A stretch of 64,000 nt of DNA, from the NCBI GenBank assembly GCA_963761865.1, contig CAVXIE010000002.1, positions 274,595-338,594 on the forward strand, in the 5' to 3' direction. Position 1 is the stretch's first letter; each line of letters starts with the position of its first letter. Under the pieces are notes generated by a model. That model was not told the origin of the DNA. It searched no databases and was given only the letters and a program-made list of their open reading frames with translations. This stretch comes from Candidatus Staskawiczbacteria bacterium. GTDB lineage: Bacteria; Patescibacteriota; Minisyncoccia; Minisyncoccales; Staskawiczbacteraceae. A program made the position numbers and the translations under genes. Positions 2,474 to 64,000 of this stretch are shown one piece after another.

Positions 2474-3274
2474 ATGAAACAAATAATTATTGCCAATTGG
2501 AAAATGAATCCAGCTACCCAAAAAGAGGCTAAGCAACTTTTTGATGGTGTAAAAAAGGGCATTAAGAACACTAAAATAGATGTTGTTATTTGTCCGCCGT
2601 TTGTTTATCTTGAAGAAATATCCGGTCTGACACTTGGCGCACAGGACGTTTTTTATAAAGAAAAAGGCGCGTTTACCGGAGAAATTTCACCGCAGATGTT
2701 AAAAGACTTAAGGGTTGAATATGTAATAGTTGGCCATTCGGAAAGAAGAAGATATTTTGGCGAAACGGATGAAACGATAAATAAAAAGATAAAAGCCGTG
2801 CTTGATTCCAAACTAAAGCCTATTTTTTGTGTTGGCGAAAATGAGGGAGAAGATAAGCAAACGGTTGTTGAAAGGCAGATTGCAGAAGGCTTGAAAGATA
2901 TTTCGCGCGATAGCTTAAAAAATATTATTGTAGCTTATGAGCCGGTGTGGGCGATTAGCTCGTCCCCCACTAACTTTGAATCAAGACAGGGGAGGGGCGA
3001 CATGAGTTCAAAACTAAATTCAAAGTTAGTGGGGGATAAAGTAAAAAATTGCTCTATTGATGAGACTATGAAATCCATTCTGCTGATAAGAAAGACTCTT
3101 TCAAATTTATTTAGCAGGCAATTGGCCGACAAAATGCCAATTCTTTATGGTGGAAGTGTTACCTCCAAAAATTCGGCGCAATACTTAAAAGATGCTGGCG
3201 TAGATGGTTTGTTAGTTGGCGGAGCGTCGCTGGACGCCGTAGAATTCTCAGAAATAGTAAAATCCGCTGATTAG
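2474..3274 (+). CDS. tpiA: triosephosphate isomerase with a 24-25 aa in-frame insertion in the AIGTG lid region
   Basis: NWKMN, VGHSERR, AYEPVWAI, LYGGSV motifs; insertion SSSPTNFESRQGRGDMSSKLNSKLV between WAI and GDK. Confidence 0.85.
   Translation: MKQIIIANWKMNPATQKEAKQLFDGVKKGIKNTKIDVVICPPFVYLEEISGLTLGAQDVFYKEKGAFTGEISPQMLKDLRVEYVIVGHSERRRYFGETDETINKKIKAVLDSKLKPIFCVGENEGEDKQTVVERQIAEGLKDISRDSLKNIIVAYEPVWAISSSPTNFESRQGRGDMSSKLNSKLVGDKVKNCSIDETMKSILLIRKTLSNLFSRQLADKMPILYGGSVTSKNSAQYLKDAGVDGLLVGGASLDAVEFSEIVKSAD
2964..3035. repeat. 72-nt palindromic element inside tpiA (perfect 18-bp arms, 36-nt loop), in frame
   Basis: cccccactaactttgaat (2964-2981) is the exact reverse complement of attcaaagttagtggggg (3018-3035). 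Confidence 0.9.
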
Positions 3275-3933: not shown

Positions 3934-5622
3934 TTGCGGCAAAAGTTTCTCAGTTTTTTTGAAAAGCATGGGCACATGATAATTCCCAGCGCTTCTTTAA
4001 TTCCGAAAGATTCCACTGTATTATTTGTAACCGCCGGAATGCAGCCGCTGGTGCCTTTTTTGTTAGGAGAGACGCATCCTAAAGGGGAAAGGCTGGTTAA
4101 TTATCAAAAATGTATTCGAACAAACGATATCGCGGAAGTTGGCGACGATACTCATTTAACTTTTTTTGAAATGCTTGGCAACTGGTCGCTGGGCGATTAC
4201 TGGAAAAATGAATCAATTAAATGGAGCTTTGAATTTTTAACCAAGGAACTAGAAATTCCAATTGAAAGACTGGCGGTGTCATGTTTTATTGGAGACGAAA
4301 ATGCGCCAAAAGATCGGGAATCAGCAGATATTTGGGAAAACCTGGGAATAAAAAAAGAGCGGATTGCGTTTTTGCCAAAGGAGGATAATTGGTGGGGTCC
4401 GGTTTCAGATTCGGGTCCGTGCGGTCCTGACACAGAAATTTTCTATTGGAAATCAAATGATATTCTGGCGCCGGTTGCATTTGATCCAACCGACAAAAAT
4501 TGGGTTGAAATTTGGAATAATGTTTTCATGCAATACGTAAAAACTCAGGATGGAACATATGCGTTGGCCGAGCAAAAAAATGTTGATACCGGCATGGGGT
4601 TTGAACGGATTGTTGCGATGTTGAACAATAAAAAAAGCGTGTATGAAATTGATGTGTTTGAACCGATAATGAACCTTTTTCCCGGCGAGTTTGATGAACG
4701 GAAAAAACGAATTATTGCTGACCATGCCAAAGCCTCAATGTTTTTAATCTCTGATGGAGTAATCCCCTCAAATAAAGATCAAGGATATGTGCTAAGACGA
4801 TTATTAAGAAGAATGATAGTTCATCTAAGAGGAGTGAGCGGAGTTGAATTATTGGAGCCAGTAAAAAAATGCATAGAAATTTATAAAGATCTGTATGAAT
4901 TAGATGAAAATAAAATTCTATCGGTGATAAAAGAAGAAGCGGATAAATTTGAAAAAACTCTTACATCCGGATTAAAAACCATAGAAAAAATTGATGTGAT
5001 TAATGGCAAAGAAGCTTTTTTGCTGTATGAAACGTATGGATTTCCGCTGGAAGTGCTGGAAGAAATGCGCGAGGTTGATAATCGGGAACAATTTTTTGAA
5101 GAATTAAAAAAACATCAGGAGCTTTCAAGAACCGCTTCGGCCGGAATGTTTAAGGGTGGATTGGCAGATCATGAACCAAAAACTATAAAATTACATACGG
5201 CTCATCATTTACTTTTGGCTGCTCTGCAAGAAATGTTTGGGAAGCAAGTAAAGCAAAAAGGAAGCAATATAAATTCTGAAAGACTAAGATTGGATTTTTC
5301 TTTTGACAGAAAATTAACCGATGAGGAAAAAAAGAAAATTGAAAATATGGTACAATCAAAGATAGACGAAGCCTTGGATGTGGTAAAAAAAGAAATGCCA
5401 AAAGAGGAAGCCGAAAAAATTGGCGCAGAAATGGAATTTGGTGTAAAATACGGTAATACGGTGTTCGTTTATTTTGTTGAAGATAAAAAGGGAAATGTTT
5501 TCAGCAAAGAATTTTGCGGAGGTCCGCATGTAAAAAATACCTCAGAGCTGGGTAAGTTTTATATTATAAAGGAAGAGGCCGTAAGTTCTGGGGTGCGAAG
5601 AATAAAAGCAGGGTTAAAGTGA
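3934..5622 (+). CDS. alaS: alanine--tRNA ligase, short form lacking the C-terminal (C-Ala) domain
   Basis: RQKFLSFFEKHGH, TNDIAEVGDDTHLTFFEMLGNWS, HTAHHLL, CGGPHV; TTG start at 3934 (an out-of-frame ATG lies at 3918, start uncertain). Confidence 0.85.
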   Translation: MRQKFLSFFEKHGHMIIPSASLIPKDSTVLFVTAGMQPLVPFLLGETHPKGERLVNYQKCIRTNDIAEVGDDTHLTFFEMLGNWSLGDYWKNESIKWSFEFLTKELEIPIERLAVSCFIGDENAPKDRESADIWENLGIKKERIAFLPKEDNWWGPVSDSGPCGPDTEIFYWKSNDILAPVAFDPTDKNWVEIWNNVFMQYVKTQDGTYALAEQKNVDTGMGFERIVAMLNNKKSVYEIDVFEPIMNLFPGEFDERKKRIIADHAKASMFLISDGVIPSNKDQGYVLRRLLRRMIVHLRGVSGVELLEPVKKCIEIYKDLYELDENKILSVIKEEADKFEKTLTSGLKTIEKIDVINGKEAFLLYETYGFPLEVLEEMREVDNREQFFEELKKHQELSRTASAGMFKGGLADHEPKTIKLHTAHHLLLAALQEMFGKQVKQKGSNINSERLRLDFSFDRKLTDEEKKKIENMVQSKIDEALDVVKKEMPKEEAEKIGAEMEFGVKYGNTVFVYFVEDKKGNVFSKEFCGGPHVKNTSELGKFYIIKEEAVSSGVRRIKAGLK

Positions 5623-5698: not shown

Positions 5699-6979
5699 AT
5701 GAAGAAAAAAATCTACGATATTTTACCGCCAAAGTTGGCAAAAAAAATAGAAAAAGATTCCAAGTTGGCAGGTGGTATCACGATAAGCAAACGTAAACCG
5801 CAGAAAGCAATTTCTCATAGAAAGACAGAAAGAAAGTTTCCGATTTGGCAGGTCGTTGCCGGCGTTTTGGTTATTATTATCGTAATTGGTGTTTATTTAT
5901 ATAACACTTTGCCGTATGTTAAAATACAGGTTTCGCCTAAATTCAGTGACGTAAATATTCAGGACAGTTTGACAGCTGATAAATCTTTTCAAAATGTAGA
6001 TTTAACTCAAAAAACTATTCCTGCACAATATATAGAAATTGAAAAAGACGGCGCCCAGGATTTTTTGGCAACCGGAAGCGCGACAAATGGCGGAAATGCT
6101 TCAGGGACTATCACTGTATATAACAAAGTAACTCCGGCAACTCCCATTATACTAAAAGCCGGTACTCACTTTTTATCAGATTCCGGTAAATATTTTAAAT
6201 CTGTAAGCAAAATTACAATTCCGCCAATGAAAGGCAAGACACCCGGTTCTGTAAGTGTTGCGGTTCAGGCAGAACAAACAGGGGCAGATTTTAATATCGG
6301 CGCATCTAATTTTTCTGTACCGGGACTTTCCGGTACTTCATATTATTATGGGGTTTGGGCAGTATCAACATCTGCAATGTCCGGAGGTTTTTCAGGAAAC
6401 GTAAAAAAGGTTACTGCTGATGACATACAAACTGCTCAGGGCATTTTGACTAAAAAACTATCAGACGATGCCATTTCTTCAATAAAAAGCTCTCTTACTC
6501 AAGACGAAATTTTGCTTGATGGCGCAGTGTCAACAAATATGTTAAGCGCGAATTCTGATACTGATGCAAACTCAATCAAAGACAGTTTTAACGAAAGCGT
6601 AAAAGTGCAAGCTTCGGCGCTGGTATTTAAAAAATCTGATTTACAACAATTTGTTAAAAACGATATTTCAGCTCAATTAACCGATGGGCAAAGTCTGCTG
6701 GAGAAAAGTTTGAGTGTAAATTACAGTGCAGACTCAGTTGATTTGCAGGGCGGAACCGAAAAAATAAATCTGCAAATTTTGGCAAAAAGTTATTATAATT
6801 TAGATCTGCAAAGCCTGGTCGGTTCATTAAGCGGAAAATCGTCTTCCGATATAAAAGCAATCATCAGTTCAAAATACAGTGGGGAAGTCGCCAGCACCAA
6901 AGTAAACTTCTGGCCATTATGGGTAAATTCCGCCCCAACAAATCAAAAGCGAATAAATATCAGCTTGAATTTACAATAA
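5699..6979 (+). CDS. hypothetical membrane-anchored protein
   Basis: 426-aa ORF, one N-terminal TM segment (IWQVVAGVLVIIIVIGVYLY), Ser/Thr-rich extracytoplasmic part. Confidence 0.6.
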   Translation: MKKKIYDILPPKLAKKIEKDSKLAGGITISKRKPQKAISHRKTERKFPIWQVVAGVLVIIIVIGVYLYNTLPYVKIQVSPKFSDVNIQDSLTADKSFQNVDLTQKTIPAQYIEIEKDGAQDFLATGSATNGGNASGTITVYNKVTPATPIILKAGTHFLSDSGKYFKSVSKITIPPMKGKTPGSVSVAVQAEQTGADFNIGASNFSVPGLSGTSYYYGVWAVSTSAMSGGFSGNVKKVTADDIQTAQGILTKKLSDDAISSIKSSLTQDEILLDGAVSTNMLSANSDTDANSIKDSFNESVKVQASALVFKKSDLQQFVKNDISAQLTDGQSLLEKSLSVNYSADSVDLQGGTEKINLQILAKSYYNLDLQSLVGSLSGKSSSDIKAIISSKYSGEVASTKVNFWPLWVNSAPTNQKRINISLNLQ

Positions 6980-12828: not shown

Positions 12829-13611
12829 ATGCCGATTTTTAATGACTTAAACTTAGATAATTGGAAAGAATCTGAAATTTGGACTGACAGTCTTTGGATT
12901 ATTCCCGAAAGGGATAATACGGGAAAGCACAGCGGATTTTACCACGGGAATTTTATTCCACAGATTCCGCGACAGTTGATACTGAGGTACACAAAAGAAA
13001 ACGAAACTGTATTTGATCCATTTCTCGGCAGTGGTACTACTGCCTTCGAAGCCGAAAGTTTAAATCGAAATTTTATTGGCGTTGATATTCAAAAAAGTTT
13101 AATTGATTATGTCGGAAAAAACATCGAGCCGAAAAATAACTTTTCTGAATTAATCGCAGCAGACAGCACAAAGATTGAATCGATAGAAAAAATTAAAGAA
13201 ATCTTAAAAGATCAGAAAAAAGAGAACGTCCAGTTAGCAGTCCTGCATCCGCCCTACGCAAATATAATTAAGTTCAGTAATATGGAGGGAGACTTATCAA
13301 ATACTAATTCTCTTAAAGAATTTTTAGATAAATTTTCCGCTGTTTTAAAAAATACTCTCGAGATATTAGAAAAGGGGAGATATATGGCAATTGTGATAGG
13401 CGACAAATACACCGCCGGAGAATGGATACCTTTAAGTTTTTATTGTATGTACGAAGCACAGAAGTTGGGTTTAAAGTTAAAAAGCATTATAATCAAGAAC
13501 ATGGCAGGTAATCGGGCGAAGCAAAATAAAGAAGCCATTTGGCGCTATAGAGCGCTTACAAGCGATTATTATATTTTTAAGCATGAATATATTTTAATTT
13601 TTAAGAAATAA
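12829..13611 (+). CDS. DNA methyltransferase (N6-A/N4-C type, permuted motif order)
   Basis: motif I VFDPFLGSGTTAFEAESLNRNFIGVDI precedes motif IV-like LHPPY. Confidence 0.75.
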   Translation: MPIFNDLNLDNWKESEIWTDSLWIIPERDNTGKHSGFYHGNFIPQIPRQLILRYTKENETVFDPFLGSGTTAFEAESLNRNFIGVDIQKSLIDYVGKNIEPKNNFSELIAADSTKIESIEKIKEILKDQKKENVQLAVLHPPYANIIKFSNMEGDLSNTNSLKEFLDKFSAVLKNTLEILEKGRYMAIVIGDKYTAGEWIPLSFYCMYEAQKLGLKLKSIIIKNMAGNRAKQNKEAIWRYRALTSDYYIFKHEYILIFKK

Positions 13612-13613
13612 CT

Positions 13614-14513
13614 ATGGAATACATCAAGTCGAAACTATCAGAAGATTTAGCGAAAAAGATACTTGGTAGCAAAGATAATGCTTTAAAGTATTTGTTGCAC
13701 ATTAATAAACATAAACAGGTTGTAGGGTTGGATTTTAAAATTTGTAGTCGTGGTAAAAACAAAGGCCAAAATAAACCCTGTGTCGACCCTAAAGATATTT
13801 GGAAAATTGTGGTTAATAACTGGGATTACGAATTAAGCAAAAACACGATACGTGAATTGTTTAAGGAAACGGAAAAATACAAAAGCGGAAAAGATGCTAA
13901 CAATGTTATGGATTTATTGGTTAAAGAATGGGAATCATTGAAGTTAGGAAATATCGAATGGCCTTTTTCACAAGGTGATTTCGACGGTTTCGTTCAAAGG
14001 ATAAACTCGGAAAACAATAACGGGATTGTTAAGGATGAAAAAGTAAAAGTAGCTGCGGTTAAATATAGAAGAATTAAGGAAATTAACACTGTTAGAAATG
14101 ATTTTATTGAAACTTTAATTTTTGAAAAGAATGAGAATATTTTACCTACGCTAAACCATCGTAGGGGAGTCGACTTTTTTATCGACGGCATTTCCTTTGA
14201 TCAAAAAGTTGCGAAAAGTCCAACTAATCAGTTTAAGGCAAAATTCAAAGATGGCTGGAAAGAAGAAGCAATTAAAAATCCTGGGATCGTTGCCGAATAT
14301 TTGTACAGATACCAAGATGAGGGAAGATTCGGAGCAGACCCAAGATTGTTGGTGGTTTATTTGGATGAAGATATTTCGATTCAAAAGATTCGAGAAATAA
14401 TAAAAAATACTGATCTGAGTAAACCAATTGAAATTAATTTCAGTTTTAAGCACAAAGTTCAGGGAGATAAAAGTTATAAGGTGCCATGTTTCGTAATCTT
14501 GTTGCATAAATAA
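13614..14513 (+). CDS. putative type II restriction endonuclease (PD-(D/E)xK-like)
   Basis: sandwiched between two methyltransferase genes with 2-8 nt gaps; candidate catalytic GVDFFIDGISFDQKV. Confidence 0.55.
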   Translation: MEYIKSKLSEDLAKKILGSKDNALKYLLHINKHKQVVGLDFKICSRGKNKGQNKPCVDPKDIWKIVVNNWDYELSKNTIRELFKETEKYKSGKDANNVMDLLVKEWESLKLGNIEWPFSQGDFDGFVQRINSENNNGIVKDEKVKVAAVKYRRIKEINTVRNDFIETLIFEKNENILPTLNHRRGVDFFIDGISFDQKVAKSPTNQFKAKFKDGWKEEAIKNPGIVAEYLYRYQDEGRFGADPRLLVVYLDEDISIQKIREIIKNTDLSKPIEINFSFKHKVQGDKSYKVPCFVILLHK

Positions 14514-14521
14514 TTAAAATT

Positions 14522-15589
14522 ATGAATTATATCGGCAGTAAGTTGTCATTATTGGAATTTCTGGAAGATTCGATAAATAAAGTGGTTGATAAAAACTGCC
14601 GAACTTTTTGTGACCTATTTGCAGGAACAGGAATTGTCGGAAGCTATTTTAAAAGGAAAGGCTATAAAATAATTGCAAATGATATACAATATTATAGCTA
14701 TGTTTTGAATAGGCATTATATCGGGAATCATAAGGAGTTGAAGTTTGATAAATTAACAAAAGAAATTGTTGAGTTAAAAAATATAAAGGAAAATGATCGG
14801 AAAAATTTTGTCTGTAGTCACCTGGAAAACCTGAATGGTGTAAAAGGATTTATTTATAAAAATTATTGCCTCGGTGGAACAAAAAATAAAAAAGAGCCAC
14901 GCCAATATTTCTCTGATGAGAACGGAATGCGTTGCGATGCTATTCGCCAAAAAATTGAAAACTGGAAAGAGAGAAAGTTGATTTCTGATGATGAATATTA
15001 TTTTTTAATTACGAGCTTGCTTGAATCAATAGATAAACATGCAAACACGGCTTCCGTTTATGGTGCTTTTTTAAAACAACTCAAGAAAACTGCCCAAAAG
15101 AGTTTGGTTTTTAAGCCAGCCGAATTAATTATAAACGAACAAGATCACGAAGTTTTTAATGCCGACATAAACGAAATGGCAACTAAGGTGAGTGGCGATA
15201 TTTTATATTTAGATCCGCCATATAATCAACGTCAGTACGCTACGAACTATCACCTTTTGGAAACAATCGCAAAATATGATAATCCGAAAATCTTCGGGAA
15301 AACAGGGTTGCGTAATTATGAAAAAGAAAAATCCCTTTATTGTTCAAGAACGCAGGTAAAAAAAGCATTTAAGGATTTAATTTTGAAAGCCCAAGCAAAA
15401 TATATTTTTCTTAGCTATAATAATGAGGGATTGATGACAATAGATGATATTAAGGAAATAATGAGCCTACGTGGCAAATACGGCCACTTTACGAGGGGAT
15501 ACAATAGATTTAAGGCCGATAAATCGAAAAATAGGAACTATACAGCAGATAAAACCACAGAATATCTGCATTATGTAATTTGCAATTAA
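14522..15589 (+). CDS. D12-class (Dam-like) N6-adenine DNA methyltransferase
   Basis: N-terminal NYIGSK, DLFAGTGIVG, catalytic LDPPY. Confidence 0.8.
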   Translation: MNYIGSKLSLLEFLEDSINKVVDKNCRTFCDLFAGTGIVGSYFKRKGYKIIANDIQYYSYVLNRHYIGNHKELKFDKLTKEIVELKNIKENDRKNFVCSHLENLNGVKGFIYKNYCLGGTKNKKEPRQYFSDENGMRCDAIRQKIENWKERKLISDDEYYFLITSLLESIDKHANTASVYGAFLKQLKKTAQKSLVFKPAELIINEQDHEVFNADINEMATKVSGDILYLDPPYNQRQYATNYHLLETIAKYDNPKIFGKTGLRNYEKEKSLYCSRTQVKKAFKDLILKAQAKYIFLSYNNEGLMTIDDIKEIMSLRGKYGHFTRGYNRFKADKSKNRNYTADKTTEYLHYVICN

Positions 15590-15592
15590 ATT

Positions 15593-15889
15593 ATGCCTAT
15601 ACAAGTTGAGGGGTATCAATTTTCGGGACCATACTATCACACAAAAAAATTTAATCAGAATTTTGGTTGTGTTTATATAATTTTAAATAATAACAATCAA
15701 GTTGTCGACGTTGGAGAAACGAATGACATAAATTCTCGTATTATTAATCATGAACGAAAAATGTGTTGGTATAAAAACGGAGTTGGTGAAACCGGATTGT
15801 ACATTTACATAAGTAACGACCAGAATTTTCGTTTGCTGCTCGAAAAATTAATTAGAAATAAGTACCACCCTTTTTGTGGTGACAGATAA
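15593..15889 (+). CDS. small GIY-YIG-like domain protein
   Basis: GCVYIIL..NQVVDVGETNDINSRIINHE fits GIY..YIG..R..H spacing; 98 aa. Confidence 0.4.
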   Translation: MPIQVEGYQFSGPYYHTKKFNQNFGCVYIILNNNNQVVDVGETNDINSRIINHERKMCWYKNGVGETGLYIYISNDQNFRLLLEKLIRNKYHPFCGDR

Positions 15890-15891
15890 TT

Positions 15892-16572
15892 ATGGATAAC
15901 AGAGGATATTTTATTATAGACGGATCTCATCTGTTTTCGAGCATTCACGAATTGCAAAGGACGAAAATAGAATATGCCGGGAAAAAACTGAATATCTCTC
16001 TTCTAACAGAAGCCTTAATGAGAAAGTGGTCTTTATGGGTTGGGGCGACAATTCGTGTAGTATATTATTTTAAGAAGAATGATAATCGCTTGAGAACAAT
16101 GCTTGATATTCCAGCGGAAGACGAGCCCGGCAAGAAAAATCATTGGCAAATTAAAGAATGCGGAGAGCCGGTTGACGCGGTGCCCGATGAACAATTGCAA
16201 AAATTAGATGCTCAATATAGAGATCATTTTGTTCGTCAAGAAAAAGGGTTGGACGGCAAACTTATTTGTGATGTTCTCATGTCGGTATCTAGCGGAAATG
16301 CATCGAATATAGTATTTTTAGTTAACGATAGAGACTATATCCCGCTTTTTGAATCCGTGCAAGCATTAGGTGGAAATACTTATTTAACCGCATTAGATGG
16401 ATCTCAAAATATTCAAAAAAAGTTAGCAAAACTTGCTGACAAATATCTTACTCTAGATTCGGAATTAGATGCAATTTTCGGAGTTGTTCGCCAGCCGCCT
16501 CAACCAGAACCACAAGTTCTGCAACAGGATCCGATGCCGGAGGCTTCAGCTGAAACGCCAACACAACAATAG
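15892..16572 (+). CDS. NYN/LabA-like (PIN-like nuclease fold) domain protein with P/Q-rich tail
   Basis: YFIIDGSHLF, GLDGKLICDVL, IVFLVNDRDYIPLFESVQALGGNTYL. Confidence 0.6.
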   Translation: MDNRGYFIIDGSHLFSSIHELQRTKIEYAGKKLNISLLTEALMRKWSLWVGATIRVVYYFKKNDNRLRTMLDIPAEDEPGKKNHWQIKECGEPVDAVPDEQLQKLDAQYRDHFVRQEKGLDGKLICDVLMSVSSGNASNIVFLVNDRDYIPLFESVQALGGNTYLTALDGSQNIQKKLAKLADKYLTLDSELDAIFGVVRQPPQPEPQVLQQDPMPEASAETPTQQ

Positions 16573-16590: not shown

Positions 16591-16618
16591 TTGACTGGGT
16601 AAACCATCGCGGTATAAT
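16591..16618 (+). promoter_or_regulatory. near-consensus sigma70 promoter with no ORF downstream
   Basis: TTGACT - 16 nt - TATAAT. Confidence 0.6.
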
Positions 16619-16624
16619 GGACTT

Positions 16625-16811
16625 GAAGCTGATAGCTTCCTTGGGAGACTGCTGGGTTATAACTGGTTATTGATTATTGGATATTGTTCTCTGGTTTTGT
16701 GGAAATAATCTGAGGTAATCACGATTCTCGCCCGCGTTTGTGGTGAGAAAGCGGAGCACCTCAGTGGGCAAAGAGATAAAAAAATCTTCCGCATCTCGCG
16801 GAGGTTTTTTT
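16625..16811 (+). ncRNA. unidentified structured RNA (promoter to intrinsic terminator)
   Basis: nested stems ctgaggt/acctcag and ttctcgcc/ggtgagaa, terminator cttccgc/gcggagg plus T7; no convincing ORF. Confidence 0.4.
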
Positions 16812-16816
16812 ATCGT

Positions 16817-16959
16817 TGCCCACTGTGGCACAAAGGGGGTTGGGGAAATTGGGTATTTCCCCGTGAAGGAAAACAGTGCCGCGAATAGCGGACACGTTAG
16901 AAACTGTGAGTTTCTAAGGAGCGAGCTTGCGAGCGACGCCATAGTGGGCAAAGAGATAA
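16817..16959 (+). repeat. conserved hairpin-rich core element, copy 1 (family H), flanked by 17-nt direct repeats
   Basis: core 16828-16938 nearly identical to 41974-42091; agtgggcaaagagataa at 16763-16779 and 16943-16959; tgcccactgtggc / gccatagtgggca closing stem. Confidence 0.8.
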
Positions 16960-16962
16960 TCG

Positions 16963-16996
16963 AAAAAAAAGAACCTCGCACTCGAGGTTCTTTTTT
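16963..16996. terminator. bidirectional intrinsic terminator
   Basis: A8 - gaacctcg/cgaggttc - T6. Confidence 0.75.
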
Positions 16997-21060: not shown

Positions 21061-23350
<2,290 letters not shown>

Positions 23351-35404: not shown

Positions 35405-36477
35405 ATGAAAAATCCAATAAGAAAACTGTTTTCTTTTTTGTCGCTTGATATGGCAATTGATTTGGGCACTGCCAATTCTTTGGTTTATGTAAAGGATAGA
35501 GGAATAATTATCAATGAACCTTCAGTTGTTGCGGTAAATAATAAAACCGGCCAGATTTTAGCTATTGGAGAAGAGGCAAAAAAAATGGTTGGTAGAACCC
35601 CCGCATACATTTCTGCAACAAGGCCATTGGTTAATGGAGTTATTTCTGATTTTGAAGTTACCGAGCAAATGCTAAAATATTTTATTGAAAAGGCGGTGGC
35701 AGGTTCAAGAAAAATGTTTGGTTTGGGATATACTCCACGAGTTATTATCGGAATTCCCTGCGGAGTTACAGAAGTTGAAAGAAAAGCAGTCAGAGACGCG
35801 GCAAAAAATGCCGGGGCCAGAACAGTATTTTTAATTGAAGAACCATTAGCTTCGGCAATTGGAGCAAAACTTGCCAATTCAAGAAGCCGGCGGAAATTTT
35901 ATTGTTGATATTGGCGGAGGAACAACAGAAGTGGCGGTAATTTCTTTGGGCGGAATTGTGACTTTCAGAAGCTTGCGAGTCGCCGGAGATAAATTAAATG
36001 ATGACATTGTTCAATTTGCGCAAAAAGAATACAAACTTTTAATTGGAGAAAGAACTGCAGAATTAATTAAAATAAATATTGGTTCGGCGCATGCCTCTAA
36101 AAGAGAAAAAAGAAATGCCAATGCGCGGCAGAAATTTGGTTACAGGTTTGCCTGAAGAGGTGGTGATTTTTAATGACGATATTCAAAGAGCGTTGGAAAG
36201 GTCTGTAAAACACATTATTGCGGCTATTAAAACAACAATTGAAGAAACTCCGCCGGAACTTTTGGCTGATGTTATGACTAACGGAATTTATTTGGCCGGA
36301 GGAGGATCATTACTGAGAGGACTTGACGTTTTAATTTCGCAGGAAACAAAAATGCCTTGCAAAATAATTGATGATCCGTTAACTTCGGTTGTCCGAGGCT
36401 GCGGAATTGCTTTGGAAAATATTGATACGCTTGCCGGTTTGGTGCAAAAAGACGAAGAATGGGGAGCACCGGTGTAA
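35405..36477 (+). pseudogene. mreB: MreB paralogue with two frameshifts
   Basis: IDLGTANSLVYV, EPSVVAV | [21 protein letters not shown] | LAGGGSLLRGLD in three track ORFs. Confidence 0.85.
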
Positions 36478-41168: not shown

Positions 41169-41750
41169 ATGAACGAAGAATATCGAAGTAGCTTAGAAGA
41201 TGAATCTGGAAAAGAGATTCCAACGGAAACTAGTGAATCAAACAAGCTGAAAAAGAGAAAACCAAAATTATCCGGACTTAGAAAACTTGCAGCATCAGCG
41301 GTATTAGGGGTTTCTGCTTTGGGTGTTGTAAATACGCCGGAAGCAAGTGGCCAACAAAAACCAATAGCAAGAAAAGTAGAACAGAAAGAATCTTTGGCGG
41401 AAAAAAAAAGGGAATCGATTAATCTTTTTGATAAAATTTATAATTTACCAGAACAAGATTCTGAAAATAAAGACAATGACAGGCTGAAAAAAATACAAAC
41501 TGCAAATATTCTTATTCAAAGATTCGCGTTGCAAAGAAAACTTGGATACCCAGAACCCAAGGATGGGTTATTAAAGATATCTGGGACAGTGACTCCCGAA
41601 GATTTATATGATGGTCTCAGGGCTTTAGAAAGACATTTGGATTATTTTCCTAGTTTTCGGGAAGTAGCGCCCTCAAATCCCGGAATGACTGCGTTAAAAT
41701 CATTGATGGATACCTACTTTGCCGATCCTCGTTTTCAAAATAGAAAATAG
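41169..41750 (+). CDS. hypothetical protein with one TM/signal-anchor
   Basis: 193-aa ORF, LAASAVLGVSALGVV. Confidence 0.5.
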   Translation: MNEEYRSSLEDESGKEIPTETSESNKLKKRKPKLSGLRKLAASAVLGVSALGVVNTPEASGQQKPIARKVEQKESLAEKKRESINLFDKIYNLPEQDSENKDNDRLKKIQTANILIQRFALQRKLGYPEPKDGLLKISGTVTPEDLYDGLRALERHLDYFPSFREVAPSNPGMTALKSLMDTYFADPRFQNRK

Positions 41751-41886: not shown

Positions 41887-41958
41887 GCCACCTTAGCTCA
41901 GCGGCAGAGCATTGGTATCGTAAACCAAGGGTCCCGGGTTCAAATCCCGGAGGTGGCT
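41887..41958 (+). tRNA. tRNA-Thr (CGT)
   Basis: acceptor gccacct/aggtggc, D gctc..gagc, anticodon arm ttggt-atCGTaa-accaa, T-arm ccggg-ttcaaat-cccgg. Confidence 0.85.
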
Positions 41959-41959
41959 C

Positions 41960-42114
41960 CGAGATTTGAACCCGCACAAAGGGGGTTCGGGGAAATTGGG
42001 TATTTCCCCGTGAAGGAAAACAGTGCCGCGAGCTTTGCGAGCGGACACGTTAGAAACTGTGAGTTTCTAAGGAGCTAGCTTGCGAACGACGGGGTCTAAT
42101 CCCGGAGGTGGCTC
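41960..42114 (+). repeat. conserved hairpin-rich core element, copy 2 (family H), followed by a duplicate of the tRNA-Thr 3' end
   Basis: core 41974-42091 matches 16828-16938; atcccggaggtggctc at 41944-41959 and 42099-42114. Confidence 0.8.
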
Positions 42115-42230: not shown

Positions 42231-42890
42231 ATGTTTAGGCACATCATTTCGGTTGTATTTTTGTTGTTTGTCTTCAATATATCGGCAAGTGTAGCTCAAG
42301 AACTGGCGCTTGAGAAGACAAAAAAAATTGTCAAAGACTTTGGTGATAGCTATTGGCCAATACGGGAAAAAGCCAGCGACGAGCTTGATAAGATTATCAC
42401 GTTTGATATTTGTAAATGGCTGATTTCCAGAAAAACAAATGACTCTGAAGTCCAGCTTCGCATAGAGCAGGGCATTACTGTATATTCCCGCAGATTGCGT
42501 TTAAAATATAGCGCTAATCTGAAGGGTTATCCCAAGTGGCCGTGGATTGATGAGCTAGTTTCGTGTTGCTATTACGACATTCCATATAAAGGATTGCATT
42601 ACTCAGGTGTAGCTAGCGGATATGTAGACCTTGCAGTGTCGCGTGGCGCGGCAAGGGATGGTTCTCCTAATTGGGAAAACTATCGGGAAGCAACTCGAAT
42701 CTGGACAGAAGAAAGAGTTGATTTTCAATTTGGAAAAGCGTTTTGGGAATCCAAAGATGCAAAGGAATTTAATAGCCGGATATCAGAAAACATGGATTGT
42801 ATAGATAGGGATATCGCGCGTCTCGTTGAAAGAGAAAACAAGTTTTGGAAAGACAAAGGAATGAAAAATCCATTACTTGAAAAAAAGTAA
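42231..42890 (+). CDS. hypothetical secreted protein
   Basis: AAAGGAG 8 nt before ATG 42231; signal-like MFRHIISVVFLLFVFNISASVAQE. Confidence 0.55.
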   Translation: MFRHIISVVFLLFVFNISASVAQELALEKTKKIVKDFGDSYWPIREKASDELDKIITFDICKWLISRKTNDSEVQLRIEQGITVYSRRLRLKYSANLKGYPKWPWIDELVSCCYYDIPYKGLHYSGVASGYVDLAVSRGAARDGSPNWENYREATRIWTEERVDFQFGKAFWESKDAKEFNSRISENMDCIDRDIARLVERENKFWKDKGMKNPLLEKK

Positions 42891-61648: not shown

Positions 61649-64000
61649 ATGGAAGAAAACGCAAAGATTGCTGCAAATCAAATTTTGCCCAAAAGCAAAA
61701 ATGTTTTGTGGTTTAGGGAGGTTGGCATTAAAGATGTCGGCTCTGTCGGCGGGAAAAACGCTTCGTTGGGCGAATTACGCAATAATCTGGTTGCAAAAGG
61801 AATAAATGTCCCGGATGGTTTTGCAACCACAGCCAATGCCTATTTTTATTTTATGGAAAAAAGCGGTCTGAGGAAGCAAATGGATGAAATCCTAAAAGAT
61901 GTTGATATTCATAATTTAAAAACACTTCACGAAAAGGGTCAAAAAGTACGGGAATTAATTTTGGCAGCCAGTTTGCCCGATGATTTAAACCAAGATATTC
62001 TTACCGCTTACCAGGAATTGTCAAAGCTTTATGGTGTAGAAAAAGTGGATGTTGCTGTAAGGTCTTCGGCTACCGCCGAGGATTTACCCGGGGCCAGTTT
62101 TGCCGGCCAGCAGGAAACTTATTTGAATATTAGCGGTGAAAAAAGTGTTTAACTGCGGTAAAAAAATGTTTTGCTTCGCTTTTTACCGATCGGGCAATCG
62201 TTTATAGGCAAGAAATGGGTTTTTCGCATTCAAAGGTTGGATTATCTGCCGGAATTCAAAAAATGGTAAGATCGGATTTGGGAGCTTCAGGAGTGATGTT
62301 TTCGTGCGATACAGAATCAGGGTTTGGCGACGTTGTTTTAATAAATGCCAGCTATGGACTGGGCGAAAACGTGGTGCATGGTAGAGTTGAGCCTGACCAA
62401 TATTATGTGTTTGAAACAACTCTTAAAAAAGGATTTAAGCCGGTGATAGAAAAAAAGATTGGTTCAAAAAATATCAGAATGGTTTATGACAAAAATCCGG
62501 AAAAACCGACGTAAAAATATTAAATCATCAAAAAAAGAACGGGAGACATTTGTGTTGCCAAACGAAGATATTTTAACATTGGCAAAGTGGTCGTTATTAG
62601 TTGAAGAACATTACGCAAAATCAATGGATATGGAATGGGCAAAAGACGGAAGAGACGGAAAGCTATATATTGTGCAGGCAAGACCCGAAACAGTGCAAAG
62701 CAAAAAGAATTTAAAGATTCTGGAAGAATATAAAATTGATACAAAAAAAGTTGGCAAGATATTGAGCCAGGGATTAAGCGTTGGAAGTAAAATAGGTTCA
62801 GGAAAGGCAAATGAAATAATGAGCCCCAAAGATATCGGCAAATTTAAAAAAGGAGAAGTTTTAGTAACAGGAATGACCGACCCTGATTGGGTTCCGGCAA
62901 TGAAACTGGCTTCGGCAATTGTCACTGATTCCGGCGGAAGAACTGCCATGCGGCAATTGTTTCACGAGAGCTTGGAATTCCGTGCGTAGTTGGAGCTACT
63001 GATGCAACCAAAGTTATAAAATCCGGAGATGAGGTTACAGTAGATTGCTCAAGCGGAGAAAATGGGTTTGTTTATCAGGGAATAATTCCGTTTGAAATTG
63101 TAAAAACCGATGTTTCTAGAATCCAAAAAACAAAAACAAAAATCGTGATGAATATCGCTGATCCGTCTAAGGTTTTAAATTTAAGCTTTATTCCAAACGA
63201 CGGCGTTGGTCTTGCCAGAGAAGAATTTATCATAGCCAATACGATAAAAATTCATCCTAATGCTCTGATAGATTATAAAAAGCTGAAAACTCCTCTGCGC
63301 AAAAAAATTGATGCGCTGACGTTAGGATATGAAAATAAGGTAGATTTTTACGTTGATAAATTAGCCGAAGGCATTGGAAAAATTGGAGCCGCATTTTATC
63401 CAAAACAGGTGATTGTCCGATTTTCCGATTTTAAAACCAATGAATATCGCCAGCTTTTGGGCGGAGATTTATACGAAATGCACGAAGACAACCCAATGAT
63501 TGGGTTTCGAGGAGCGGCCCGATATTATGACGTCCAGTTTAAGCAGGCGTTTTTGCTGGAGTGCAAAGCAATTAAAAAAGTTAGGGAAGAGTTTGGTATT
63601 GATAATATACAGGTGATGGTTCCGTTTTGCAGAACAGTTGATGAAGGCAGAAAAGTTGTAAAAGTTATTGAAGAGGCGGGATTAAAAAGCGGAGAAAACG
63701 GCTTAAAGATTTTTGTAATGTGCGAAATTCCGGCCAATGTTATTTTAGCTGAGCAATTTTTACAGGTTTTTGACGGATTTTCAATAGGTTCTAATGACCT
63801 AACCCAGTTGACCTTAGGACTTGATAGGGACAATTCAGTAATTGCCGGCATCGGAAATGAAAAAAATGAAGCAATTAAAGAGCTGATAGAAGAAGCGGTA
63901 AGAGTTTGCAAGTTAAACAATAAATACTCCGGAATTTGCGGGCAGGCGCCGTCAGATTTTCCTGATTTTGCAGAATTTTTAGTGGAGCTGGGAATTGAAT
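61649..64000 (+). pseudogene. ppsA: phosphoenolpyruvate synthase (pyruvate, water dikinase), at least three frameshifts; 3' end beyond window
   Basis: VGGKNASLGEL, SSATAEDLPGASFAGQQETYLN, GGRT(C)HAAIVSRELGIP needs a missing base near 62940, C-terminal PEP-utilising barrel open to 64000. Confidence 0.85.

Follow-up and report, generated by a model that had tools for sequence, protein, structure and literature searches.

The tRNA-Thr locus

The 64-kb stretch of genomic DNA analysed here (hereafter referred to as the window) carries a tRNA-Thr(CGT) gene whose 3' end occurs twice, with a short structured insert between the two occurrences. We designate the duplicated segment in use by the gene as T, its displaced second occurrence as T', the conserved insert as the core, and, as a', the locus-specific segment directly 5' of the core that repeats the first bases of T in inverted orientation. 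The features of this locus (copy A) are the following.

41887-41958, + strand: tRNA-Thr(CGT), host gene of copy A, CCA not encoded (Rfam tRNA, 66.5 bits)
41935-41959, + strand: T, in-use duplicated segment (tRNA T-arm and 3' acceptor strand)
41935-41950, + strand: segment a, first 16 nt of T and 5' strand of the a/a' hairpin
41959-41974, + strand: a', directly 5' of the core
41974-42090, + strand: core, 117 nt (covariance model R1, 129.1 bits, E 7e-33)
41989-42009, + strand: P1 of the core
42010-42022, + strand: single-stranded GUGAAGGAAAACA of the core
42023-42048, + strand: P2 of the core
42050-42070, + strand: P3 of the core
42071-42090, + strand: 3' region of the core with a small P4, ending in GAACGAC
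42090-42114, + strand: T', displaced second tRNA 3' end, directly after the core

The Rfam score bears out the tRNA-Thr(CGT) call at 41887-41958 made in an earlier note on this DNA, and ARAGORN places the end of the gene slightly further downstream (41887-41960). The repeated tRNA 3' end described in the same note is also present, but the exact repeat is 17 nt long rather than 16 (aatcccggaggtggctc; 41943-41959 and 42098-42114) and is nested in an ungapped 25-nt repeat with 23 identical positions (41935-41959 versus 42090-42114). Relative to T, T' carries two T-loop substitutions that make it a poor T-arm. One or two bases separate the tRNA gene from a', of which the 12 nt gatttgaacccg (41963-41974) are fully complementary to the functional T-arm (41935-41946; 12/12). 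Over the extended segment (41959-41974 versus 41935-41950) complementarity reaches 15 of 16 positions, a score attained by none of 200 shuffles, and only 13 of 16 against T'. The anti-target segment noted previously is hence an inverted T-arm copy upstream of the core, as described, but one that complements the upstream functional copy better than the duplicate. The hairpin formed by the T-arm and a' is predicted in RNA and DNA folding alike. The protein encoded upstream of the locus (41169-41750) had no homolog but itself among 5.8 billion proteins, and the downstream neighbour (42231-42890) was an orphan by exact-sequence look-up, with no Pfam domain. With both flanking proteins orphan and the sole other contigs stopping inside the core, no strain-level empty site was found for the window tRNA-Thr.

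A second copy in the window

A match to the core some 25 kb away, with about three differences outside one hairpin tip, had been reported in the earlier note. With the bounds refined to 41974-42090 (copy A) and 16828-16937 (copy B), the two cores differ by two substitutions and one single-base indel outside the tip of hairpin 2, which itself differs in length by 6 nt, and the two 8-bp hairpins and the ccgc/gcgg hairpin listed in that note are all present. Two long core sub-patterns each occur exactly twice in the window, versus none expected in shuffles, and a covariance-model search with filters off returned no third copy in the window. Copies A and B are not a chance match.

Single-base indels between copies should not be over-read in this assembly, given its frameshift-type indels. 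Compared with intact orthologs, gyrB and a PPDK-like gene are split across several frames in the window (21249-23347; 61676-63999), which also holds a partial MreB-like ORF (35405-35908); these indels in essential genes look like assembly errors, or else pseudogenes.

Copy B comprises the following features.

16591-16811, + strand: host transcription unit, with a promoter-like sequence, a gene of about 190 nt and a terminator (no Rfam match)
16591-16618, + strand: near-consensus promoter of the unit, TTGACT-16-TATAAT
16763-16779, + strand: T repeat, 3' end of the unannotated unit of about 190 nt
16786-16804, + strand: intrinsic terminator of the unit, with T-run
16813-16829, + strand: a' tcgttgcccactgtggc, able to pair with the first bases of T as well as T'
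16828-16937, + strand: core (R1, 127.9 bits, E 1.5e-32)
16938-16959, + strand: T' (exact repeat 16943-16959)
16938-16996, + strand: T' and, after it, another terminator-like hairpin with a T-run, unrelated to the first

The 17-nt direct repeat flanking copy B (agtgggcaaagagataa; 16763-16779 and 16943-16959) and its anti-target segment, both absent from the earlier note, were found here. Over 17 positions, a' of copy B forms 15 Watson-Crick pairs and one G-U pair with T', with one mismatch, and closes the core through this pairing; against T it matches at 14 of 16 positions. Copy B repeats the whole layout of copy A around a different target.

The cluster upstream of copy B (12829-16572) encodes two DNA methyltransferases (of N6_N4 type and D12 class), a 299-aa ORF and an NYN-domain protein, and may represent an islet devoted to restriction-modification or defence. 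When 40 ORFs of the window were scanned against Pfam, they proved to be housekeeping genes and this methyltransferase/NYN island next to copy B, with no partner for the element. The earlier statement that the locus has no neighbouring gene for a recombinase, reverse transcriptase or nuclease holds for the 64-kb window as a whole.

A family of related elements in CPR bacteria

Exact-pattern scans of GTDB genomes and JGI/ENA metagenomes, followed by a covariance model, yielded a family whose 21 distinct copies are distributed over the window, three GTDB genomes and metagenome contigs. The scan patterns derive from the most conserved part of the core, so that the diversity of the family is under-sampled and any autonomous relatives would be missed. 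A census of the translated core in a protein catalogue produced only four matches, leading to two further copies. The search of related genomes for the core, which the earlier note had proposed, came back exclusively with CPR or CPR-like hosts: all are Saccharibacteria, Parcubacteria or CPR-like metagenome contigs, the named ones being two Saccharibacteria genomes and one Staskawiczbacteria genome from GTDB. The window organism is a relative of the latter, with a GAPDH 79% identical and syntenic neighbouring genes. No match to the core was found in INPHARED phages, PLSDB plasmids or IMG/VR viral contigs.

Core identity across CPR classes amounts to 85-95%, exceeding the mere 79% identity of GAPDH even between the window genome and its Staskawiczbacteria relative, and core G+C content (53%) departs from that of the genome (37%); together, these observations point to horizontal spread. 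Near-identical cores are located at dinB, dnaX, gyrB and tRNA-Thr, as well as at the two window sites, so the core has recently spread to different targets with almost no divergence. A simple local tandem duplication, the explanation against which the earlier note had set its own, was rejected, since one and the same core occurs at unrelated loci and in unrelated genomes.

The element also has consequences for annotation, where it generates chimeric gene ends, spurious ORFs (the core is open in one frame) and assembly breaks. Catalogue protein P0123 is a GAPDH fused to the core translation, and two short-read contigs from one organism, L032 (ending at position 3084) and L033 (starting at position 1), both break inside the core.

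Structure of the core

The core spans about 115 nt, folds into four helices and has GAGCGAC as the family right end. In an alignment of 19 copies, 97.7% of the helix cells are paired, versus 35-53% when the partners are slid by one to three columns, and both-sided (compensatory) changes affect 12 of the 26 core pairs; the observed values were reached by none of 500 shuffles. Hairpins 1, 2 and 4 vary widely in length, and P3 together with the unpaired AGGAAAACAG, GGACACGUUAGAAAC, CUAAGGAGCGA and GCGAC is nearly invariant, a conservation biased by the search patterns. A protein-coding core was rejected on the grounds that the hairpins covary as RNA or DNA and that the frame shifts with the length of the hairpin 2 tip.

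Scanning against Rfam, the check for a known RNA family named in the earlier note, returned nothing but tRNA, both at the gathering threshold (whole window) and at E-values up to 10 (both loci). Likewise, cmscan at gathering and E-value thresholds gave only tRNA and no match to group I or group II intron or self-cleaving ribozyme models, and introns of group I or group II are longer than the core.

Targets and layout

Sixteen of the 21 copies show a duplicated gene end, belonging to a tRNA or a housekeeping gene and lying at either the 3' or the 5' end. The targets are listed below; several host-gene names at loci outside the window were read from the translated sequence rather than obtained by profile searches.

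tRNA-Thr(CGT) end: window copy A and L029
tRNA-Thr(TGT) end: L019
tRNA-Gly(CCC) end: L029
tRNA-Asp end: L040
gyrB 3' end: L021
gap 3' end: L013/L030
rpsJ 3' end: L028
mraY (likely) 3' end: L002
binding-protein gene 3' end: L011
dinB 5' end, gene oppositely oriented: L018
dnaX 5' end, gene oppositely oriented: L020
lepA 5' end, gene oppositely oriented (twice): L026 and L031
mfd (likely) 5' end, gene oppositely oriented: L025

The expectation that flanks would always be RNA-gene ends therefore fails, as housekeeping protein genes are among the targets, and the flank pattern itself, a duplicated gene end typically with an inverted copy 5' of the core, holds for the 16 copies but not for a few simple intergenic insertions. 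Contig L019 additionally contains, at 5109-5183, between tRNA-Pro and tRNA-Ile, an ARAGORN-predicted tRNA with anticodon TTA, which would read the UAA stop codon; the contig is CPR-like.

At the duplicating copies the order along the strand is gene body, T, spacer (where present), a', core, T' and native flank. T continues the gene without a break and is complete, and GCGAC is in every case followed immediately by T'. Thirteen copies have an a' that repeats the first 12-23 nt of T in inverted orientation, and the duplication starts, on its left side, within 0-3 nt of the foot of the a/a' helix. The similarity of T to T' and the complementarity of a' to T each exceeded 200 of 200 shuffles in most loci. 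Summed over all loci, the a/a' helices comprise 173 Watson-Crick pairs, 7 G-U pairs and 15 mismatches, versus 128, 19 and 20 for a' with T', and in 9 of 11 loci, the youngest-looking copies among them, T is the segment that a' matches best. The spacer may hold an intrinsic terminator (copy B, L029b and L040) or the upstream region of a gene (L020). In some copies a' is missing (L013/L030), nearly missing (L028) or, in the older-looking lepA copies, decayed to 12/15 and 13/18 Watson-Crick pairs with T, from which it follows that a' is not needed for persistence.

The exact repeats at tRNA 3' ends (17 nt in window copy A, 12 nt in L019 and 19 nt in L029b) are what a classical site-specific integration remnant would leave, that is, a miniature att-flanked element of a tyrosine-integrase island at a tRNA gene. 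We regard this explanation as very improbable, because the core is found at numerous targets of unrelated sequence, protein-gene 5' ends among them, each having a repeat of its own, because a single integrase cannot recognise all of these, and because no integrase gene is found near the window copies.

No gene-end duplication accompanies L022, L023, L027, L039 or the composite L005, five copies in all. Classical-looking short duplications are confined to L027 (about 5 nt) and L005 (4 nt). In L005 the core lies inside ksgA, in frame, and the insertion is bounded by two inverted motifs of a second short repeat family and by a 4-bp ATTG duplication. This second family, in which YCGTCATTGCGAGGAG and GACGNNGCAATCT enclose a variable hairpin, is absent from the window and occurs in L026 (e.g., at 6435-6475, plus about five sites), at L039:7203 and at L005:109 with an inverted partner. 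In both L005 and L039 the 115-nt core occupies the position of the variable hairpin. L005 does not count as evidence for guided targeting, as its 16-bp terminal repeats belong to this separate family.

Origin of the duplicated gene ends

Across the nine protein-gene cases T and T' differ at 88 positions, 62 of which are third codon positions, and the amino-acid differences number 18, versus 56 expected for random substitutions (P = 0, 2000 simulations). This indicates that T and T' derive from orthologous gene ends, which accumulated their differences in separate lineages under purifying selection, and it contradicts both a target-site duplication followed by decay, which the codon-position test rejects, and the earlier suggestion that the gene end is regenerated as an identical copy. 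All 12 types of substitution are represented, and adenine is involved in 36 versus 27 of 92 between the copies, with no excess in one of them.

Related genomes provided empty sites at three loci, none of them in a close (strain-level) relative. L022 has an rpsJ end without the element, collinear with T' and the downstream region of L028; L028, in turn, has an uninterrupted rpmC-rpsQ junction at which L027 carries the element; and in the window gap and the gene downstream of it lack the element present at this site in L030. Compared with related genomes, the element is an insertion. The earlier proposal of an element that integrates into gene ends thus stands in that the core is a dispersed insertion with duplicated ends, but its restriction to the 3' ends of stable-RNA genes does not, given the 3' and 5' ends of protein genes among the targets.

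The arrangement X-T-core-T'-Y is formally symmetrical, so collinearity cannot pick the incoming copy. At gap, T' is 72-79% identical to three relatives, similar to the gene body (73-76%), and T only 63-65%, the exception being the window ortholog, which is slightly closer to T (39/57) than to T' (37/57). For rpsJ the similarity is 21/27 for T' versus 19/27 for T, and at gyrB the window ortholog ends in gat att taa, as does T', whereas T ends in gac atc tag. These small counts at three loci weakly suggest that T is foreign and T' native.

The same symmetry fits a reversed polarity, in which the mobile unit would be a' + core + T', inserted just beyond an intact native end, with T' a piece of an earlier host's gene (a homology arm or decoy) and a' made complementary to T secondarily, for instance by template-switch correction of a quasi-palindrome. 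Several copies do lie exactly after a stop codon, tRNA end or terminator, where a neutral insertion would survive, and L005 and L039 share 5' and 3' core extensions at unrelated sites, as if both sides could travel with the core. Those extensions, however, are the separate short repeat family with a nested core; T', not T, is at background similarity to relatives at three loci; and the closeness of a' to T in most loci, the youngest-looking ones included, would demand an extra ad hoc step. We consequently give reversed polarity a low probability.

Spread by natural transformation and homologous recombination alone is a serious alternative. Under it, the element would require no dedicated machinery: it would have originated in a rare template switch and spread by homologous recombination in transformable CPR bacteria, with the gene body and T as left arm and T' as right arm. 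Homing to the same position of orthologous genes, the orthology of T and T' and the failure to find a partner gene all agree with this, as does the comparison of gap T' with its nearest relative, where the core-distal part is identical at 24 of 27 positions and the core-proximal part at 21 of 30, as expected for a crossover inside T'. Against it stand a core with precise constant ends and strongly conserved unpaired nucleotides, at least four different targets reached with almost no core divergence, and simple insertions at non-homologous sites as well (L027 and L039). The precise ends, the many targets and the simple insertions argue for an activity that recognises the core, and we judge recombination alone to be improbable.

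A model for gene-end homing

We favour, at somewhat better than even chance, the interpretation that these sequences constitute a small, non-autonomous, CPR-specific mobile DNA element that homes to gene ends, with T + spacer + a' + core as the inserted unit. The unit would thus include a replacement gene end. At the tRNA-Thr site, positions 41935-42090 would be the incoming DNA and 42090-42114 the old tRNA 3' end. In a single-stranded form of the element the a/a' hairpin would fold, its foot defining the left edge of the unit and GCGAC the right edge, and the unit would enter precisely at the site that corresponds by homology to the beginning of T, through base-pairing or homologous exchange with the resident end. 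The invaded gene would keep its integrity while acquiring a foreign end, and T', its former end, would be pushed downstream. The element would move between lineages by homing to orthologous genes, occasionally reaching new sites without gene-end duplication, and the mobilising activity would act in trans. Its orientation does not follow GC skew (range -0.14 to +0.23), which argues against a simple lagging-strand single-stranded-DNA mechanism. The earlier note had also raised the possibility of a co-occurring protein gene: all-against-all comparison of the ORFs of all loci detected no recurrent protein family near the copies, only housekeeping genes and shared synteny.

A further reading, possible though rather doubtful, is that the core and a' form the cis part of a new base-pair-programmed mobility system in CPR bacteria, in which the 12-23-nt segment of a single-stranded DNA or RNA form would set the left end and pick out the matching position in the gene to be invaded, swapping in a replacement terminus and so sparing the essential genes that it enters, with either a trans-acting protein or the RNA itself as catalytic partner. 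At helix positions where T' differs from T, 12 transitions preserve the pairing with a' as G-U and two disrupt it as A-C (binomial p = 0.006), but 5 of the 12 G-U-keeping changes come from one locus and the same helices contain 21 other (transversion) mismatches; over whole T segments the two transition classes are about equal (22 versus 21). As a guide signal, such wobble-compatible changes are suggestive only.

The wobble bias would also be compatible with a functional RNA, in line with the guide-and-scaffold idea of the earlier note, in which the core would act as guide scaffold for a trans-encoded nuclease or recombinase, or as a self-cleaving or processing RNA, with a' and/or T' as guides and the duplications arising from RNA-guided homing. 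Conserved single-stranded stretches alongside hairpins of variable length, and the placement of a' (12-23 nt) directly 5' and of T' directly 3' of the scaffold, conform to this picture. We nonetheless consider it quite unlikely: besides the mismatches and the single-locus contribution to the wobble count, Rfam gave no match, HEARO and ribozyme models included; no conserved PAM/TAM-type motif is apparent beside the target in the junction sequences, read directly; a' pairs better with the T carried by the element than with the resident end that was displaced; and copy B and L029b, bracketed by terminators, are unlikely to be well transcribed.

CPR bacteria have tiny genomes and little known mobile DNA. 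If the favoured reading of a gene-end-homing mobile element is correct, invasion of the ends of tRNA, gyrB, dnaX, gap and ribosomal protein genes without inactivation would be a new strategy for selfish DNA, and the element would directly mark gene flow between CPR lineages.

Comparison with known systems

Full-text literature searching returned no description of such an element, and each of the families considered below appears to differ from it in at least one testable defining feature, so that it appears to be of a kind not yet described, with a mechanism that we infer. In its workings the element comes closest to phage 21 in icd, treated below, and to free-standing homing-endonuclease elements that carry a replacement gene terminus, of which the insertion in atp6 of Allomyces mitochondria is reportedly one. 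Like the latter, the element sits near a conserved gene end, supplies a diverged, coding-equivalent terminus, leaves the resident terminus downstream and spreads between lineages to the same gene; the coding-competence of both termini is found here too, in the third-position and amino-acid counts given above. Unlike them, it inserts 110-200 nt without an ORF, carries as cargo a structured module of about 115 nt and an inverted start of the terminus, and also targets tRNA genes and 5' gene ends.

In the integration of phage 21 and e14 into icd, the two copies of the gene end differ by synonymous changes. As there and in tRNA islands, the insert has a copy of the gene end on either side and leaves the gene functional, and as in tRNA-gene integrative elements a direct repeat of the tRNA 3' end marks both junctions. 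The present element differs from such integrations in its size (100-200 nt), the absence of an integrase, its many targets with their own repeats and the possession of a', which has no counterpart there; no tyrosine or serine recombinase was found near either window copy, and the targets, being unrelated, have no common attachment sequence.

With MITEs and Rickettsia palindromic elements (RPE) it shares being short, structured, multi-copy and non-coding, as well as a possible in-frame location within genes (ksgA in L005). In contrast to these, it has no conserved terminal inverted repeats, its flanks differ at each locus and derive from the local target, and its duplications are long (12-70 nt) and diverged, not short, identical and of fixed length. 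A diversity-generating retroelement was rejected, the substitutions between T and T' not being adenine-specific and no reverse transcriptase having been found. In relation to retrons, a closing helix between a' and T' can form, the element occurs in multiple copies, and there is no reverse transcriptase gene beside it.

IS200/IS605 elements transpose as single strands, and their ends and target are read by pairing to short internal guides. The element resembles them and their hairpin-only derivatives in lacking terminal inverted repeats, in its hairpin-rich, strand-specific folding and in having an internal segment complementary to the sequence at the left boundary. It departs from them in the length of the putative guide (12-23 nt, compared with 4-5 nt in IS200/IS605), the variable distance of the left boundary, the absence of a conserved tetra- or pentanucleotide target and an orientation unrelated to GC skew. 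Neither a TnpA nor a TnpB gene was found in the 64-kb window, and the left junctions have no common motif.

Finally, a conserved scaffold flanked by target-matching, locus-specific segments recalls the bridge (seek) RNAs of IS110/IS1111 elements and the omega RNAs of TnpB and IscB. These differ from the present element in that no DEDD recombinase or RuvC nuclease gene is adjacent to it and Rfam gives no HEARO match. Unlike in bridge RNAs, a' and T' address one target segment rather than left and right halves, with no internal guide loops, and the duplication greatly exceeds the 2 nt of the IS110 core. If base pairing of the inverted segment proves to determine where insertion occurs, the element would rank with bridge RNAs, omega RNAs and group II introns among naturally programmable insertion systems, and be an unusually small one.
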